Notes under the pieces: model-generated
What the model saw: only the letters and a program-made list of their open reading frames with translations
What the model was told of the DNA's origin: nothing
The model's database searches: none
NCBI GenBank assembly: GCA_965237525.1
Contig: CBDEFO010000003.1
Location: 32,001 to 96,000 of the forward strand
Direction of reading: 5' to 3'
Origin: Candidatus Latescibacterota bacterium
Lineage (GTDB): Bacteria > Latescibacterota > CBDEFO01
DNA: 64,000 bases
Program-made: the position numbers and the translations under genes
Part shown: piece by piece, positions 28,853 through 64,000 of the stretch
How the letters are laid out: each line of letters starts with the position of its first letter
How positions within the stretch are numbered: the stretch's first letter is position 1

Positions 28853-29885
28853 CTAATCCCGCCAGTCGAAAATGACGCCCAACATGGACTTCTCTCTGCG
28901 GTAGGCCATCTCGTAGACCTGGGCCATCTCCGTATAGTGGAAGCGGTGAGTGATCAGGCGTTTGGGCTCCAGGCGACCCTCTTCCATCAGGGAGAGAATA
29001 TAGGCACAGTCCCGATCCGCTGCGAAGCGGTCTTCCACCATAGTAGCGTATTGGGTGTCGTTCGGGTATAAATAACCCGCTGATCCCGAGACAGCGATCA
29101 GTGAAATACCTTTGATATAGAAAAGATCCATAGCCAACGGATTAAAATCCAGCGGGGTCTCTCCGCGACCGAGGAGGCTGACGATGGAAACGCGACCGTT
29201 TGGCCGCACGATCTGCAGGGCTGTACGGTAAGCAGGCCAGGGATTCGCAGTGAGGATAACCAGGTCGAGGCCCACGCCGTCAGTAAAGGTGTCCAGCTTT
29301 GCTTCGAGGTCAGGATCGTCGGACATGTAGGCGGCATGAGCACCCATCCGATCTGCCATTTCCAGGCGGATGGGGCTATTGCCAAGACTCACCACACGGG
29401 CTCCGAAGAGCGGGCCGAGAGCAACCGCACCCAGACCGAGCACACCCCAGACCGACGACCGCTACATTTTCCCCCGGTTGGAAATGGGCTTTACGATAAC
29501 AGAGGGAGCTGAGAGCGTAGAGGTGGGCAAAGACAGCATCCTCTGAATCCACGCCATCCGGGACTTTGACCATGCTGGCTGCCTGGTCGGTTATGTATTC
29601 GGATTGATGAGGCTGCCTGGTCACCACTCGATCTCCCACCTGAAAACGGGTGACCTGTTTGCCCACATCCTTCACAATGCCCAGATTGCTGTCGCCGACC
29701 CATCTGGGGTAGTCGGGTGCGCCCGGGACCCTTTCGGCTCCTTCGTAGTTGCCGCGGTCGGTACCGATTTTAAAAGCGGAAATCTGAGTCTTGATCCAGA
29801 TTTCGTCTGGCTTCAGATTGTCAGTGTTCAGGGACTGCTCCTCAAGGCGAAGGTCTCTCGGACCGTGAAGAATAGCAATTTTCAT
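28853..29885 (-). CDS. Medium-chain (zinc-binding ADH family) dehydrogenase, frameshifted near 29445
   Basis: MKIAILHGPRDL...VGDRVV...VAVVGLG|VLGLGA; one extra G in a GGGG run breaks the GxGxxG motif; C-terminal LITHRF. Confidence 0.82.
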
Positions 29886-29934
29886 GGGGGATCTCCTTAG
29901 CCCGAATAATTCACACAAAAAGGCCGTGTATTAA

Positions 29935-31453
29935 AAGCCTTGTGAAATAGTTATGTCCCAGGCAGCGTCTGAAGCGCCGATTATGGGTCAAAGAGTAGCA
30001 TATCGTATCGTTTTGCTGTGGAATAAGCAAAATAGTCTTATCAGAGTTCTGGTCAGCAAGGAACAGGAGCTGTTTGAAGAACAGGATGCACTGTCTTTGA
30101 CAGACAGGGCACACATAGACGCTTTCCCCCTTCTTATGAAAGATACAAGCCTCTTGAGATTCTGTACTGTTGCAACAAGATTCAACTGTTCATTCAGTGA
30201 GGCTGGTCCTCTGTAACGGGCTCGTCCCATACCGTATTGTTGCCTGGCTTCAGCAAAGATATGTTCACTGCGTTTACGGAGTCTCCGGGAGAGTTTGTAG
30301 TCAGCTGTTAATGAGATAGACCGTGCATGATTTCTGGCTTTCGCCTCTCGCACTTTTCTATCCCGTTCGGCCTGAATATGTGCTGAATTTGTCTTGTTTT
30401 TCCATGTAGGAATCGGTTCAATCTTCTCATCGGCTCGCAGAGGAATATGGGGTATGATTCCCCGGTCAAGTACATCAGCGATAAAATTACCAGAACCGTA
30501 ACCGGTATCGGCACTAAGTGTCTGAATGTCTTTGGGCATGGTCTATGTTTCAAGGTCATCTACCATCTTAAGGGCACTTTCGGGCTCTGCTGTCCCTGTC
30601 GCCTGCGTGCCCTGAGTCTCAAGGATTACTCTGCTTTTTGTGTCGATCAGATCATGGCCCATAAACGAGAGAAAAGCCCCTTTGCCCTTCGATTTGCTGT
30701 ATAAGCGCGCGTCGGGGTCTGTAGTCGAACGGTGTGTTTGGTTCGTCCACTTTTCACCATGAAAGTCTTTATCCTGAGGATGCCCGGACCTACCCTTTGT
30801 CTTATCACCTTCAAAACCGATTCCCTTGAGATAATCATCAAGAGAAAAAGGGGGTTCTATCGGCTCAATACTTTTCACTGAAGCATCAGCTTGTATCTGA
30901 GTGCCGTCGACACTAAGGTGTTTACCGCTCACAACACCGACATCTATGCAACACTGGACTACCTGACGCATTATCCGTTCAAACAACCCACTGGATGCCC
31001 ACTTGTGATTGCGAAGCTTGTTGATCGTGCTCCTATCCGGAACCGCATCATCAAATGTCTGATGACAAAACAACCGATATGCCGCATGCATCCCCACTTC
31101 CTGACAGAGCCGATTCTCACTCAAATTATACAGATAGCCAATAAGGATCATTCGAACAACTAATTCAGGATCAATACCGGGTCTGCCATTGTCAGGGCAA
31201 TAACAATCTGATACAACGTCTCGTACAAATGAAAAATCAACTGCCTCATCAATCTGACGAAGGATATGATCCTCGGGAACTAAATCCTCCATCTGAAAAT
31301 AGTGAAACATCGGATTTGTCTGTTCCTGCTTTTGTGGGGTCATTGTTTCCTCCATGTATAATATTATCAATAACATAATATAATACATCGGAGCTGCTTT
31401 ATCAATGCTTGTTCTATACTACTTTCTGAATCTAAGGGTTTTTCACAAGGCTT
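29935..31453 (-). mobile_element. IS1182-like insertion sequence, copy A (1519 bp)
   Basis: Terminal inverted repeats AAGCCTTGTGAAA/TTTCACAAGGCTT; TTAA duplicated on both flanks; near-identical to three other copies. Confidence 0.92.
29988..31343 (-). pseudogene. DDE transposase with premature TAG (TAC>TAG at 30543)
   Basis: Split ORFs 30543..31388 and 29988..30539; the other copies have TAC at this codon. Confidence 0.9.
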
Positions 31454-31500
31454 TTAATTAAGGGATTGTATTATAGTTATGCCGTTTAACCACGTTCGGT

Positions 31501-34405: not shown

Positions 34406-34552
34406 AAAGATTATGGCAGAACACCGCCACTCGTGCGTGGCGGATGAATACCACTGGAGGAGGAGGGCATCTTCCAAGGGTGAGGTTTGAAGCCCCGCCC
34501 GCGGAGTGCCGATGTCGAGCCGCGCCGTAGGCGGTAGGCGACGTGGTTTCAC
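34406..34552 (+). mobile_element. Putative non-autonomous IS200/IS605-type miniature element (PATE-like)
   Basis: TTTAT, then hairpin CCGCCAC-TCGTGC-GTGGCGG-ATGAAT (left-end-like) and GAAGCCCCGCC...GGCG...GGTTTCAC (right-end-like); no coding capacity. Confidence 0.4.
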
Positions 34553-35490
34553 TCTGTCACCTGCTTGACGAGTCGGAACTTCTGAATGCGGTTATTCCCC
34601 CAATCTGTTACGTAGACGTTGTCGTCTTTGTCTGTTGCCACATCTGTCGGACGTTCGAACTTTCCGTCGCCGTTCCCCTTCCTTCCCCACTGGAGAAGGA
34701 AGTGTCCATCGCTGCCAAAGACCTGGATGCGGTGATTGTAAAAATCCGCTACGTAGATCCTATCTTCTCCGTCTAAGCCTATACCGGTGGACACGTTGAA
34801 CCTGCCTTCATCTGTTCCGTAACCTCCCCAGCTCGTAAGAAGTTGCCCTTCACGCGTGAACTTGACAATCCTATGATTGTAGGCGTCAGCCACGTAGACA
34901 GTACCGTCAGAACCGACAGCTAGATCGGTGGGGTAATTAAATTGTCCGTCGCCTTCTCCGTGCTCTCCCCATTGACGGACGAATTCGCCATTTCTATCAA
35001 ACTTTTCTATCCTGTAGTTGTAGAAATCAGCTACATAGATATTCCCCTGGCTGTCCACAGATACGCCCGCCGGGGCGTCAAAATAAGTGTCCTCCTCTTG
35101 CCGCCGGCCAATAGTCCCGATAGAACTCCCGGAGGGGTTGAAGACCTGTATCCTGTCGTTGAAATATTCTGCTACATAGAGCTTACTATCCTTCATTTCA
35201 ATATGCATGGGACGCGCAAGCTCTCCACGGGCATTGCCCTCTTTTCCCCATTCGGCTAGGAAATTGCCCAGTATGTCAAACTTTTGAATGCGATTGTTCC
35301 CACTATCGGAGACATAGACACTTCCGACATCGTCAACAGCGATCCCTATAGGGCCCTGGAACTGCCCTGGCATTTCTCCTTCTGTTCCCCATTTCTGGAC
35401 GAAGACGAATTGCAGTTTGTCCTCTTTGGAACAGTAAAGATGGCCTGTCGAAAGGATCAATATTATCAGCGACAAGATTGGTTGTCTCAT
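34549..35490 (-). CDS. Exported NHL-repeat six-bladed beta-propeller protein
   Basis: Six F/LxxPxGIAVDxxGxVYVADxxNxRIQKF repeats; N-terminal signal/lipoprotein-like leader. Confidence 0.92.
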   Translation of the reverse strand: MRQPILSLIILILSTGHLYCSKEDKLQFVFVQKWGTEGEMPGQFQGPIGIAVDDVGSVYVSDSGNNRIQKFDILGNFLAEWGKEGNARGELARPMHIEMKDSKLYVAEYFNDRIQVFNPSGSSIGTIGRRQEEDTYFDAPAGVSVDSQGNIYVADFYNYRIEKFDRNGEFVRQWGEHGEGDGQFNYPTDLAVGSDGTVYVADAYNHRIVKFTREGQLLTSWGGYGTDEGRFNVSTGIGLDGEDRIYVADFYNHRIQVFGSDGHFLLQWGRKGNGDGKFERPTDVATDKDDNVYVTDWGNNRIQKFRLVKQVTE

Positions 35491-35503
35491 ATTTTCCCTC
35501 TTG

Positions 35504-35782
35504 TCAAAGTATCCTCGGCAACCACATGACGATCACCAAGGCGGTGGAGACCCATACTACAAGCACGCTCAGTCTGTGCCCGTGCCGCTTTACGTACACC
35601 AGATAGTGCGCTCTTGCCAAAAGCAGGACAGACAGAGTAAGCAAGAAAGGATAAAACTTTATCGCAAGGAACCTTGCAGTAGCTACCCCTGCTAACCCGA
35701 GCAGGGCAAAGATCGCCGGGACTATTCAACACCAGGGCAGTGCCGCAAGAAGGGCCATCAGGCTCGATGCCTTTGTCTTCAT
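35504..35782 (-). CDS. MerT/MerF-like heavy-metal transporter, probable selenoprotein (Cys-Sec motif)
   Basis: Hand translation MKTKASSLMALLAALPWC(TGA)IVPAIFALLGLAGVATARFLAIKFYPFLLTLSVLLLARAHYLVYVKRHGHRLSVLVVWVSTALVIVMWLPRIL* (92 codons, three hydrophobic segments). It fills the operon gap exactly, and the TGA at 35726-35728 sits at the second Cys of the MerT CC pair. Confidence 0.8.
35687..35706 (-). promoter_or_regulatory. Bacterial SECIS-like hairpin
   Basis: CCCUGCU-CGGGUU-AGCAGGG: perfect 7-bp stem, G among the first two loop bases, loop starts 26 nt after the UGA. Confidence 0.7.
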
Positions 35783-35794
35783 TGTTCTAATACC

Positions 35795-36334
35795 TTACTT
35801 AGTAGCAGAGGACAACATCTTAAACTGTCCAATAGACAGGACATAAGGATGCCCCGCATGGCCTTCGACTTTTTCCTTGGAGAGCGTGCCAGTTATCCGA
35901 AGGAGCTTGTCCTCGCCTTTGAGCGCCTCTTTGACCTTCTTCAACTGCTCGTTCTGAGCGATCAGAAAGACGTTCGCGTTCTTTGCAAACTTTAAAACTG
36001 TTCTGCCATTATGCTCGGATATACGGCCTTTAACCGTAATCGCGATGTCTCTTGGGGTAAAGCCGCCGTCCACCACAGCCTTCTTTACATCTTCGATGGA
36101 GAGGTTCTTTTTCTCCTTCACAGTCAGTTTGGCTACTCCCTGATCCACTTTGATCTCTAACTTCTCAACCCCTTCTACTCTCTTGAGCTTCTTCTCCAAG
36201 CCGTAGGCGCAAAAAGGGCACGAAAGACCGTCCACCTTAACTGTAGCCTCTTCTATCTGAGCCGGACTCTCCACAGGTACAGCCGACACAATAATAACTG
36301 AGAGCAACAAAGAAAGAATTCTTTTTATCGTCAT
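35795..36334 (-). CDS. Periplasmic heavy-metal-associated (HMA, MerP-like) protein with C-terminal extension
   Basis: Signal peptide; VDGLSCPFCAYGLEKKL; C-terminal HAGH; RBS AGGAGG. Confidence 0.88.
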   Translation of the reverse strand: MTIKRILSLLLSVIIVSAVPVESPAQIEEATVKVDGLSCPFCAYGLEKKLKRVEGVEKLEIKVDQGVAKLTVKEKKNLSIEDVKKAVVDGGFTPRDIAITVKGRISEHNGRTVLKFAKNANVFLIAQNEQLKKVKEALKGEDKLLRITGTLSKEKVEGHAGHPYVLSIGQFKMLSSATK

Positions 36335-36384
36335 CTTGAAACGACCTCCTTTTAACTTTACAGGTTAATATTGAGACTTTAGGA

Positions 36385-37330
36385 CTAAAAGATCAGCCAT
36401 CGAATCCCGCTTACAAAGGCAAAGTCCCTCCCAAGTTGGGTGCCGTTCAGGTCCTGGAGCAGGGGGATCTGTATCGATGTATCGATGATTAATGTGCTCA
36501 GAGGGATGTATTGTATCCCGGGAGAGAGACAAAATGTGTCCGCCGGAGTCCTCGACTGTCTGTCCACTTGCCTCGTTCCTCCGGTTGAACTGCCCGTTTG
36601 CCTCTAAATAAAGAGTGGCACAAGACGATGGATAGGTCTCATAGACCGAAGGATATATTCTGTATCCGACCGCAAGATCGTAATTTAAAGCATCTCCGAA
36701 TCTGTATTCGTCCTCCTCCCTTTTGAATGTGTAGATGGCGTCTGTGTTGATCCCGAGTCTTCCTACGCTGTGGGTTAAGATAAGTCCGGCTGAGTAATCT
36801 ATGGAGCCTGTTCCCAATTGTAGCCCTCTGGGTAGAGGTTCGCCCAACTCATCGATCTCGTCGTGGTCTCCGATGGGAAGTTTCAGTCCTCCCTTAAACG
36901 TAATTCTGGTCGTCTTTCGATGAGCGTCCCGTTGAAGGAGTTGATATTTGAATAAGAGAGAAAGATCCCCAAAGCCGCTGTCAGACAGAGTGCGTCTTAT
37001 CCCGCCCTGAACGAGACTCATCTCCTTATCCAGATACGGGATCGCTGCGGCGACTACCATTCTGTTTGGAATCAATTCGTAGGGAATTATAATAGGAACA
37101 GCCACAACTTGTACCTCACGGTCCAAAGGATCAGAGACTTTCGTACTACCCTTTAAGAGCTTCGATTTCTTTGTCGTTTTAACGAACGTCCTGAGCGCAG
37201 CACCCTGGAGGCCGACCACGAACGCTGTCTCAGTGTTGATCGGTGGCCCCTGAGCAAATGTCCCATTTGGATAAACCATATGAAGAACAACAGAGCACAT
37301 AACAGATAACAAAACGATGTATCTTCTCAT
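36385..37330 (-). CDS. Outer-membrane beta-barrel (MetA-pathway/transporter-like), frameshift near 36525
   Basis: Signal peptide, SGFGDLSL, GLKLPIG, QLGTGS motifs; the true C-terminus SPGIQY...GIRWLIF* (terminal Phe) is in another frame after a short (TC)n run. Confidence 0.75.
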
Positions 37331-37376
37331 AGACACCTCCTTCCTAAGATTACTCCTAAGACCCTCTGACATTTCG

Positions 37377-37673
37377 TTATCTTGCGAACTTATAGATGAT
37401 GTCCATCAATTGGTCGTATATTCTATCAGCCTCTTGGCTGTCTTGCGACCTGATGGAATTGGTGACACAATTTTCCAGGTAGTTTCTCATCATAATCTTT
37501 CCCACCTGCTTTAGACCCTCCTCTGCCGCTGCTATTTGGGTCAGTACCTCCACGCAAGGGCGCTCCTTTTCTATCATGCCCTGTAATCCTCTCATCTGGC
37601 CTTCAATAGATTTAAGGCGTCTGACTGTCTGGTCCTTGCGATCTTGTGAGATTAGCTTGATTTCTACGATCAT
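37377..37673 (-). CDS. csoR: CsoR/RcnR-family metal-sensing repressor
   Basis: RRLKSIEGQMRGLQGMIEKERPCVEVLTQIAA...NYLENCV. Confidence 0.88.
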   Translation of the reverse strand: MIVEIKLISQDRKDQTVRRLKSIEGQMRGLQGMIEKERPCVEVLTQIAAAEEGLKQVGKIMMRNYLENCVTNSIRSQDSQEADRIYDQLMDIIYKFAR

Positions 37674-37689
37674 CTTGTCTCCTTTCGTT

Positions 37690-37746
37690 TACACCCCCAC
37701 CCCCTGAGGGTATATAGAATATAAGAAACAACTTTAGCGATGTCAA
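37690..37746 (-). promoter_or_regulatory. Sigma70 promoter with CsoR-type operator
   Basis: TTGACA-17 nt-TATATT, followed by ATACCCTCAGGGGGTGGGGGTGT (C/G tracts typical of CsoR boxes). Confidence 0.75.
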
Positions 37747-63465: not shown

Positions 63466-63834
63466 ATGGATATAGTTGAGGAAAAAGAGATAGATACTTG
63501 CGATGTGGTGTTTGTGGACGAGGAGAGGATCAACAGCATAAGAGCCAATATGAAGTCCCAAGAGATAATAAACAGCCTCTCGGAGACGTTCAGTGTGCTG
63601 AGCGACCCGACGAGACTGAAGATTGTGCTGGCTCTTTCCGATGCTGAACTCTGCGTCTGCGACATTGCGAACCTTTTGAGCATGAGCAATTCTGCCATAT
63701 CACATCAGTTGAGGATTCTGAGAAATCTCAGGCTGGTAAAGTATGAAAAAAGGGGTAAAATGGTCTATTACTCACTGGATGATTTCCACATCGAAAATCT
63801 GATAGGCGAGGGATTGAAACACATGGAGGAGTAG
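63466..63834 (+). CDS. ArsR/SmtB-family metal-responsive repressor (CadC/ZiaR-like)
   Basis: LSDPTRLKI, ELCVCDIA, SAISHQLRILR, YSLDDFHI...KHMEE. Confidence 0.93.
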   Translation: MDIVEEKEIDTCDVVFVDEERINSIRANMKSQEIINSLSETFSVLSDPTRLKIVLALSDAELCVCDIANLLSMSNSAISHQLRILRNLRLVKYEKRGKMVYYSLDDFHIENLIGEGLKHMEE

Positions 63835-63851
63835 TTTTTTTATAATTACCG

Positions 63852-63869
63852 ATTGAATAGTTGTTCAAT
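63852..63869 (+). promoter_or_regulatory. SmtB/ArsR-type operator palindrome
   Basis: ATTGAATAGTTGTTCAAT, between the repressor and the next gene. Confidence 0.65.
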
Positions 63870-63889
63870 TGATTTTGTATGGAGATATT

Positions 63890-64000
63890 ATGATGTCTCT
63901 ATCAGATGTCTGTGATTTGCGCCTTAAGATTAAGGGCATGGACTGTCCCGCTTGCTCCTCCAAGATAGAGCGTGGTGTTTTGTCTTTGGATGGCGCCGAG
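63890..64000 (+). CDS. HMA-domain protein, probably a P1B-type heavy-metal ATPase (partial)
   Basis: RBS GGAG; MMSLSDVCDLRLKIKGMDCPACSSKIER (GMDCxxC). Confidence 0.8.
   Translation, partial: MMSLSDVCDLRLKIKGMDCPACSSKIERGVLSLDGAE

Follow-up and report, generated by a model that had tools for sequence, protein, structure and literature searches.

The 64,000-nt stretch of Candidatus Latescibacterota DNA analyzed here (contig CBDEFO010000003.1 of GenBank assembly GCA_965237525.1, positions 32,001 to 96,000; hereafter the window, its genome being G000) contains a five-gene cluster led by a CsoR-family repressor, to which we give an even chance of encoding a metal-induced, pump-less envelope relay that captures Hg(II)-like ions inward. 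We infer the identity of the ion and the inward direction from the neighbouring genes and from ligand chemistry. Insertion of selenocysteine into the MerT-like permease is strongly indicated, docking of the HMA carrier onto the outer-membrane barrel is predicted by a complex model, and a hand-off from carrier to permease is proposed by analogy with MerP and MerT. The genes and their putative control elements are listed below in the order of transcription; G001 is a congener with a closed, 98% complete genome on one contig.

37718..37746, minus strand: sigma-70-type promoter TTGACA-17-TATATT, a consensus match only (11/12), kept in G001
37690..37715, minus strand: candidate CsoR-family operator, ATAC-C-tract/G-tract over the likely transcription start, proposed from the sequence and kept in G001
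37377..37673, minus strand: CsoR/RcnR-family repressor, 98 aa, x-C40-Y65-C69 (PF02583, 82 bits)
36385..37330, minus strand: COG4313/SphA/FapF-type outer-membrane beta-barrel, 315 aa when intact, frameshifted at ~36521 (PF13557)
35795..36334, minus strand: exported MerP/CopZ-like HMA (GLSCPFC) and OB-fold protein, 179 aa (PF00403; signal peptide assigned by eye)
35504..35782, minus strand: MerT-like inner-membrane protein, 92 aa, PWC-U, with the TGA at 35728-35726 (merT_RC607, 51 bits against a cut-off of 130)
35687..35706, minus strand: candidate selenocysteine insertion sequence (SECIS) hairpin, its loop 26 nt past the UGA, weak (z about 0 to -1)
34549..35490, minus strand: exported NHL-repeat beta-propeller, 313 aa, possibly a lipoprotein (PF01436, 161 bits)

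PF02583, PF13557, PF00403 and PF01436 all score above their cut-offs in the cluster proteins, and the intergenic gaps of 46, 50, 12 and 13 nt agree with the five tightly spaced, co-oriented genes described in a first-pass annotation of this DNA. That annotation missed the frameshift in the barrel; everything else in its gene list stood. All five genes recur in G001 in the same order at 86-96% identity, with an extra barrel-HMA pair inserted. The insertion (L007:6896-8465) lies between the HMA-OB and MerT-like genes and consists of a second, divergent barrel and a protein with two HMA domains.

Beyond the window, 40 barrel loci were grouped at 85% barrel DNA identity, and split by hand where neighbours differ, into 29 neighbourhoods, the window itself not being counted; counts among these are lower bounds because 10/29 are contigs shorter than 2.5 kb. 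L006 (E 2e-4) was left out as not a subfamily member, and L051 and L057 as duplicates. An HMA gene lies within 1.5 kb of the barrel in 24 of the 29 neighbourhoods. Within 6 kb, an NHL gene is found in 12/29, a Mer-type permease in 15/29, a member of the PWC[C/U] permease family in 7/29 and MerA in 2/29; a MerR-family gene leads or flanks 13/29, and a copper ATPase or CusA 4/29. The barrel-HMA pair is thus co-conserved. The same survey often places relatives in mer-like loci or beside copper exporters, which goes halfway to the refutation that the first-pass annotation itself had named and counts against its view of a separate system. The exact five-gene order was not found outside the genus, and the same five genes occur in another order in two further neighbourhoods. 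Short contigs L020-L022 and L025 carry csoR, HMA, barrel, NHL and C-U permease genes, in that order and without MerA. Since relatives often sit with MerR and MerT, MerC or MerF, and sometimes with MerA or copper pumps, we regard the cluster as an undescribed add-on to mer-type relays rather than a separate kind. Close barrel relatives come from Latescibacterota and Poribacteria, and the host is likely diderm; no barrel match was found in a plasmid collection at E 1e-5. The spread is patchy: the HMA-OB gene occurs in 8 of 168 genomes of the phylum, and for the phylum of G168 the count is 1/151 genomes (G168 only).

The repressor scores under the RicR, RcnR and FrmR cut-offs. Alignment to the solved CsoRs 2hh7 and 4m1p (M. 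tuberculosis and Geobacillus-type) places Tyr65 in the column of the Cu-binding His, confirming the substitution noticed in the first-pass annotation, and Pro replaces the second-shell Tyr ahead of the first Cys. The remaining C40 and C69 form an x-C-x-C dithiol, the pattern seen in CstR. The motif NY(L/P)ENC is kept in all four CsoR-led neighbourhoods, which rules out the Tyr as a one-off change, and none of the four (three of them on short contigs) contains sulfur genes or an ATPase. In the parts of the family literature consulted, bona fide Cu sensors retain x-C-H-C or x-C-H-H, and x-C-x-C proteins are persulfide sensors with sulfur-detoxification neighbours (10.1101/2021.07.25.453692; PMC11672702); roles in Cu sensing are ascribed to both the Cu-binding His and the second-shell Tyr (10.1101/2021.07.25.453692). 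No Hg-sensing member is named in those parts, and the x-C-Y-C group may fall in the uncharacterised CsoR clusters 6-9 of 10.1101/2021.07.25.453692. Within the phylum, the x-C-Y-C repressor was found in G000 and G001 only (2/168 genomes). In the barrel tree, CsoR-led loci are spread over three clades, two of which hold MerR-led close relatives; the CsoR-led L026 has as its sister, at 100/100, L027, whose MerR carries two Cys, and G001 falls among loci linked to MerR and MerA. CsoR and MerR never occur together (0/29 neighbourhoods). This exchange of regulators among barrel relatives, never both at once, suggests that the repressor likely does the job performed by a MerR-family metal sensor in other loci.

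Upstream of the repressor gene, a C-tract/G-tract directly follows the -10 element (TTGACA-17-TATATT at 37746-37718, with the tract 3′ of the -10), as the first-pass annotation had proposed, and both promoter and tract are kept in G001. The surrounding 4.4-kb region holds three promoter sites matching the consensus at 11/12 positions, and nine promoter-like sites as against 4.7 ± 2.1 in shuffles. A loose version of the operator pattern has 19 matches across the genome, of which only those of the cluster and of a second csoR follow a TTGACA promoter (judged by eye). GC-tract operator sites resembling 37690-37715 are described for the CsoR family in the passages of PMC5146963 consulted, making this segment a candidate repressor operator. 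The second csoR itself (G000:C8 ~903000-906300, also L008 in G001) keeps the His (HMETC), has the same TTGACA promoter and tract arrangement, and leads a MerT-HMA fusion with Cys-Cys. Its further genes, named by eye and tblastn, encode an HMA-OB-like protein, a Cys-rich chaperone resembling Csac_0668 and a WYL-type regulator, the last not seen there in G001.

The permease gene has 92 codons, with TGT-TGA at codons 18-19; the Cys-TGA (C-U) reading of the first-pass annotation, with the TGA at 35728-35726, was upheld. The first four homologues have PWCC in place of PWC-TGA. A permease profile search gave 179 matches; among the 150 listed, 88 have CC and 59 start downstream of that column, the pattern expected because gene callers stop at a recoded TGA. 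The TGA stands at the same codon in six other lineages (G001; G063/L011; L015; L020-L022; L025; L053), which rules out a fresh nonsense mutation, and the four of the 168 phylum genomes with strong permease matches all have it, in every case directly behind barrel and HMA genes. With selA, selB and tRNA-Sec present in the genome, the TGA very likely encodes selenocysteine, as judged from the sequences. The SECIS-like hairpin lies at a fitting distance; it was dropped as evidence for selenocysteine because it does not stand above shuffles and a similar hairpin occurs in the Cys homologue L012, so that it does not discriminate. C18-U19 aligns with the CC of the first MerT helix (hhalign probability 96.5). 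Tn501-type MerT has a second, cytoplasmic Cys pair. Such a pair is visible in the MerT of L053 when aligned with the permease family, and 39 of 40 full-length top matches of the family have no Cys after the first pair. The permease belongs to a MerT-like family, and all its scores to curated families stay below their cut-offs; PWC[C/U] permeases gave no match to NF045683 at E 0.01 and none to Pfam, and a PDB sequence search with the permease profile returned nothing meaningful. CU-type MerT selenoproteins are mentioned as a small group by Haft and Gwadz (10.1101/2022.07.06.499078, consulted in part), and the portion of PMC13188914 consulted lists a selenoprotein with a putative role in mercuric transport, so that the C-U permease alone is not new. 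Another family of small membrane proteins, which has a CCALPA motif and matches nothing in Pfam or NCBIfam, recurs beside the module in L053 (8544-8918) and L015 (9588-10022).

The HMA protein carries a second, OB-fold domain that the first-pass annotation overlooked. D35, G36, L37, C39, F41, C42, Y44, H159 and H162 are invariant in 53 HMA-OB sequences. Its model (predicted local distance difference test score, pLDDT, 86) resembles HMA proteins and OB folds in structure comparison, with MerP (1osd) among the top matches; TIGR02052 (MerP) scores the carrier at 35 bits against a cut-off of 93, and the best match of the OB domain in the ESM Atlas (0.85) is a lead only. Two related observations concern homologues: L050 (G063:C296:7093-7590) encodes an HMA-OB protein whose frame contains a single TGA and which may be another selenoprotein, and P0137 joins MerC to an HMA-OB protein in one frame, by fusion or by a merged gene call.

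The intact G001 barrel was modelled with pLDDT 88 and matches FapF (5o67, E 2e-12) and Pput2725 (4rl8, E 1e-9), giving a predicted plugged-barrel fold with an N-terminal plug. When the G001 barrel was modelled in complex with the HMA protein of the window, the score was 0.80, as against 0.01 for the best of three controls; the mark for this score was reached by 116/157 solved complexes and 2/215 mismatched pairs, a benchmark that is only rough here because our own alignments were used. Three complex runs agreed in 100% of contacts, with a partner pLDDT of 82. In the modelled interface, residues 35-49 of the HMA protein, including both Cys, face the N-terminal plug, short turns and C-terminus of the barrel, a surface predicted to be its periplasmic face, on which the CxxC loop would sit. 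The model thus supports binding of barrel and carrier and gives no direction. The database protein P0257 joins a PWCC permease to the barrel in one frame, again a fusion or a merged gene call.

The barrel frame in this assembly breaks at ~36521, where two bases are missing from a TC repeat relative to G001, leaving an out-of-frame tail and the loss of the last strands. The two bases are present in near-identical contigs of runs X2 and X4 from two other studies and missing in X1, which may be the source of the assembly itself; P0010 and G001 also have an intact barrel. One-base frameshifts at window positions 29445 and 33533, in dehydrogenase-like and cyclic nucleotide (cNMP)-binding genes, are absent from X2. 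Because these two nearby indels split X1 and X2 in the same way, the barrel frameshift is either strain-level decay or a low-depth error.

Nine aligned cassette NHL proteins share no conserved Cys, His or Met, and the NHL propeller, lacking conserved metal ligands, is likely a scaffold.

The mercury-type assignment draws on the company of the barrel relatives. Three of seven MerRs scanned pass the Hg-MerR cut-off and none of the seven the CueR cut-off. MerA, MerB and MerF were confirmed in L011, L026 and L027 taken as a set; L027 has MerT and MerB just beyond 6 kb, L026 has MerF-MerT-MerP-like genes, and L009 places relatives in a MerR-MerT-MerP locus. Directly before merA, L011 (1836-3305) also encodes a fusion of a sensor-kinase-like region with a MerR-like C-terminal half. 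In the phylum, MerA occurs in just 2/168 genomes, and both belong to the eight HMA-OB carriers (Fisher p 0.002). Three neighbourhoods from two barrel clades have both the x-C-Y-C repressor and the C-U permease, suggesting one tuned cargo for this variant, and a two-Cys site without His is suited to linear two-coordinate Hg binding. The cluster lacks MerR and MerA, as the first-pass annotation had stated, and the 96.6% complete genome extends that result: a search with the MerR of L009 gave no match, and the best MerA match, which has no terminal Cys pair, reached 322 bits against a cut-off of 454. Flavin oxidoreductases near L005, L030, G064 and G065, considered as MerA, were rejected for want of the terminal Cys pair. 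Selenolates bind Hg more tightly than thiolates.

On these grounds a relay can be sketched in which the ion would bridge the two repressor cysteines and the repressor would leave its operator. Metal, probably in a neutral complex, would enter through the barrel; the MerP-like domain on the barrel's predicted periplasmic contact face would bind it by the CxxC, and from this carrier it would move on to the Cys-Sec pair in the MerT-like protein. Since no MerA was found and the MerT-like family has no cytoplasmic Cys pair, the ion would likely end in a membrane sink strengthened by selenolate, or be released slowly to routes that do not need MerA (thiols, sulfide, low-potential reductants), such as those treated in the sections of the review PMC8261052 consulted; where a genome has MerA, this module would supply the reductase. 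Of the soft-metal relay from outer membrane to cytoplasm proposed in the first-pass annotation, the stretch as far as the inner membrane is thus supported by gene anatomy, co-conservation and the complex model, and delivery to the cytoplasm is not, the cytoplasmic Cys pair being absent. A bolder version, in which the first Hg(II)-sensing CsoR drives a dedicated outer-membrane channel, capped by its own chaperone, that leads Hg to an inner-membrane selenocysteine trap as a MerA-independent mercury defence, is tentative and rather unlikely.

Several findings weigh against a mercury-capturing relay. MerA above the cut-off is missing in six of the eight HMA-OB carriers, including G000 and the closed G001. 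The Fisher p for the overlap of MerA with HMA-OB carriers is overstated by kinship and co-travelling metal islands, and only nine candidates per genome were scored. Cells with mer transport and no MerA are reportedly sensitised (Nakahara, 1979). HgcA was not found in five genomes including G000, nor MerB in the genome by tblastn with the L027 protein; a MerB family search matched nothing anywhere, controls included, and so shows nothing. Metal passage is not written in the barrel sequence, the family having no conserved Cys and a single His in 74% of sequences, and the characterised COG4313 channels, in the passages of PMC4493636 consulted, take hydrophobic organics. Conservation at the barrel-carrier interface was also an input of the complex model. 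The contrast in HMA neighbours between subfamily barrels (9/9) and distant barrels of the same phylum (0/21), which supports the barrel-HMA link, leans on controls that are mostly from one genus, 4/21 of them with an NHL neighbour. Finally, L004 has the module beside a MerR without the first Cys and a heavy-metal ATPase, and the exporters flanking 4/29 relatives speak for another metal.

That last point belongs to copper/silver envelope clearance, in which the chain would run outward, the carrier bringing metal to the barrel for release, or would hold Cu(I)/Ag(I) in the periplasm, and work with separate P-type ATPases. Induction by excess in a genome without the reductase fits removal, a Cu-type ATPase lies at C8 ~1651 kb and another ATPase for heavy metals at the far edge of the window, the OB domain has its invariant His pair, and the closest solved repressors are Cu sensors; a complex model without direction accommodates outward flow equally. 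Copper clearance nevertheless lacks the Cu-binding His and second-shell Tyr in the repressor, finds no MerR among the seven that passes for CueR, is outnumbered in Mer-type permeases (15 neighbourhoods, against 4 with exporters) and has no export energy source, neither a P1B ATPase nor an RND pump being found in the cluster. We consider it the main rival, possible although rather improbable. Barrels of at least 85% DNA identity sit with a heavy-metal ATPase (L004), MerR-MerT-MerP (L009) and MerA (L011), and this mixed company, like the patchy spread, would suit a generalist front end for uptake of soft metals or organometals, its cargo set by the host regulator and downstream enzymes; the joint recurrence of x-C-Y-C repressor and C-U permease across two clades speaks against it and makes it unlikely. 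A decaying, functionless remnant of a lost mer operon would explain the frameshifts in this barrel and in the MerT-like gene of L053 as well as the missing MerA, yet it is very improbable given the five intact genes and added barrel-HMA pair of G001, the intact barrels of X2, X4 and P0010, the confinement of the neighbouring indels to this assembly and X1, and the same gene set without MerA on L020-L022 and L025. Least credible of all is a CstR-like response to persulfide or selenium species, which the x-C-x-C pattern and selenocysteine chemistry might recommend: rhodanese, persulfide dioxygenase and CoA-persulfide reductase were not found among the neighbours scanned, so that the thiol, persulfide or selenium cargo entertained in the first-pass annotation finds no support there, the partners are all metal-trafficking folds, and MerR metal sensors substitute for the repressor in relatives.

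Two further features of the window were noted. An insertion-sequence-like element at 29934-31465 reaches over 100-fold contig depth in each of the four runs; a premature stop at 30543 in this copy is missing from the run consensus, and X2 shows an empty site. At 63466-64000 (L061:1467-4257) an ArsR/CadC-like gene is followed by a heavy-metal P-type ATPase gene that extends beyond the window end, both named by eye.

An inward Mer-type relay would bear on how Hg crosses the outer membrane and how cells cope with it without MerA, which are open questions in the parts of PMC8261052 consulted; the mer model in the portion of Boyd and Barkay (2012, PMC3466566) consulted has no dedicated outer-membrane step. 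The barrel-chaperone pair, the small Cys/Sec permease family, which gene callers lose or truncate, and the two-Cys CsoR offer three testable proteins, and a CsoR selective for a new ion would broaden the W-X-Y-Z code and might serve as a biosensor part. No description of a barrel-HMA-MerT or CsoR-led module turned up in a full-text literature search, preprint supplements not covered. The first-pass annotation's view of the architecture as undescribed stands to that extent, tempered by the frequent placement of relatives in mer-like or copper loci.

Compared with known systems, the repressor shares with Cu(I)-sensing CsoR/RicR (x-C-H-C) the PF02583 fold, two Cys, a putative GC-tract operator and an autoregulatory position, and differs in the Tyr at the Y position, the missing second-shell Tyr and the lack of a copA or copZ neighbour. 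With CstR it shares the fold and the dithiol and not the sulfide-detoxification neighbours, in the cluster or the scanned neighbourhoods. The barrel has the same predicted plugged fold as COG4313/SphA (Pput2725, 4rl8) and FapF (5o67), whose known cargoes are hydrophobic organics or amyloid subunits, whereas this subfamily is tied to an HMA partner; Pput2725 is a plugged barrel of 12 strands, presumed to let hydrophobic molecules through (PMC4493636, in part). The permease has the same Cys-Sec in a MerT-like first helix as the CU-motif MerT selenoproteins (10.1101/2022.07.06.499078; NCBIfam NF045683 MerT_CopZ_Se), but is a stand-alone 92-aa PWC[C/U] family, which may overlap with that group (example WP_250634603.1). 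Closest is the MerP-MerT relay (TIGR02052, NF010314, NF033560), with its periplasmic HMA CxxC carrier and three-helix permease with a vicinal Cys pair, from which the cluster departs by the added OB domain of the carrier and by a Cys-Sec pair without cytoplasmic Cys pair. Relative to the mer operon it lacks MerA, MerB and MerR, and has instead a CsoR-family regulator and an outer-membrane barrel, both absent from the mer genes in the portion of PMC3466566 consulted, where a survey of 272 operons names arsR, merR and merD as the regulators and includes no gene for an outer-membrane protein. The cluster would work like MerP/MerT without being a mer operon by membership, and its new points, the x-C-Y-C repressor and the predicted barrel-chaperone contact, make it an undescribed variant of the Mer-type relay.

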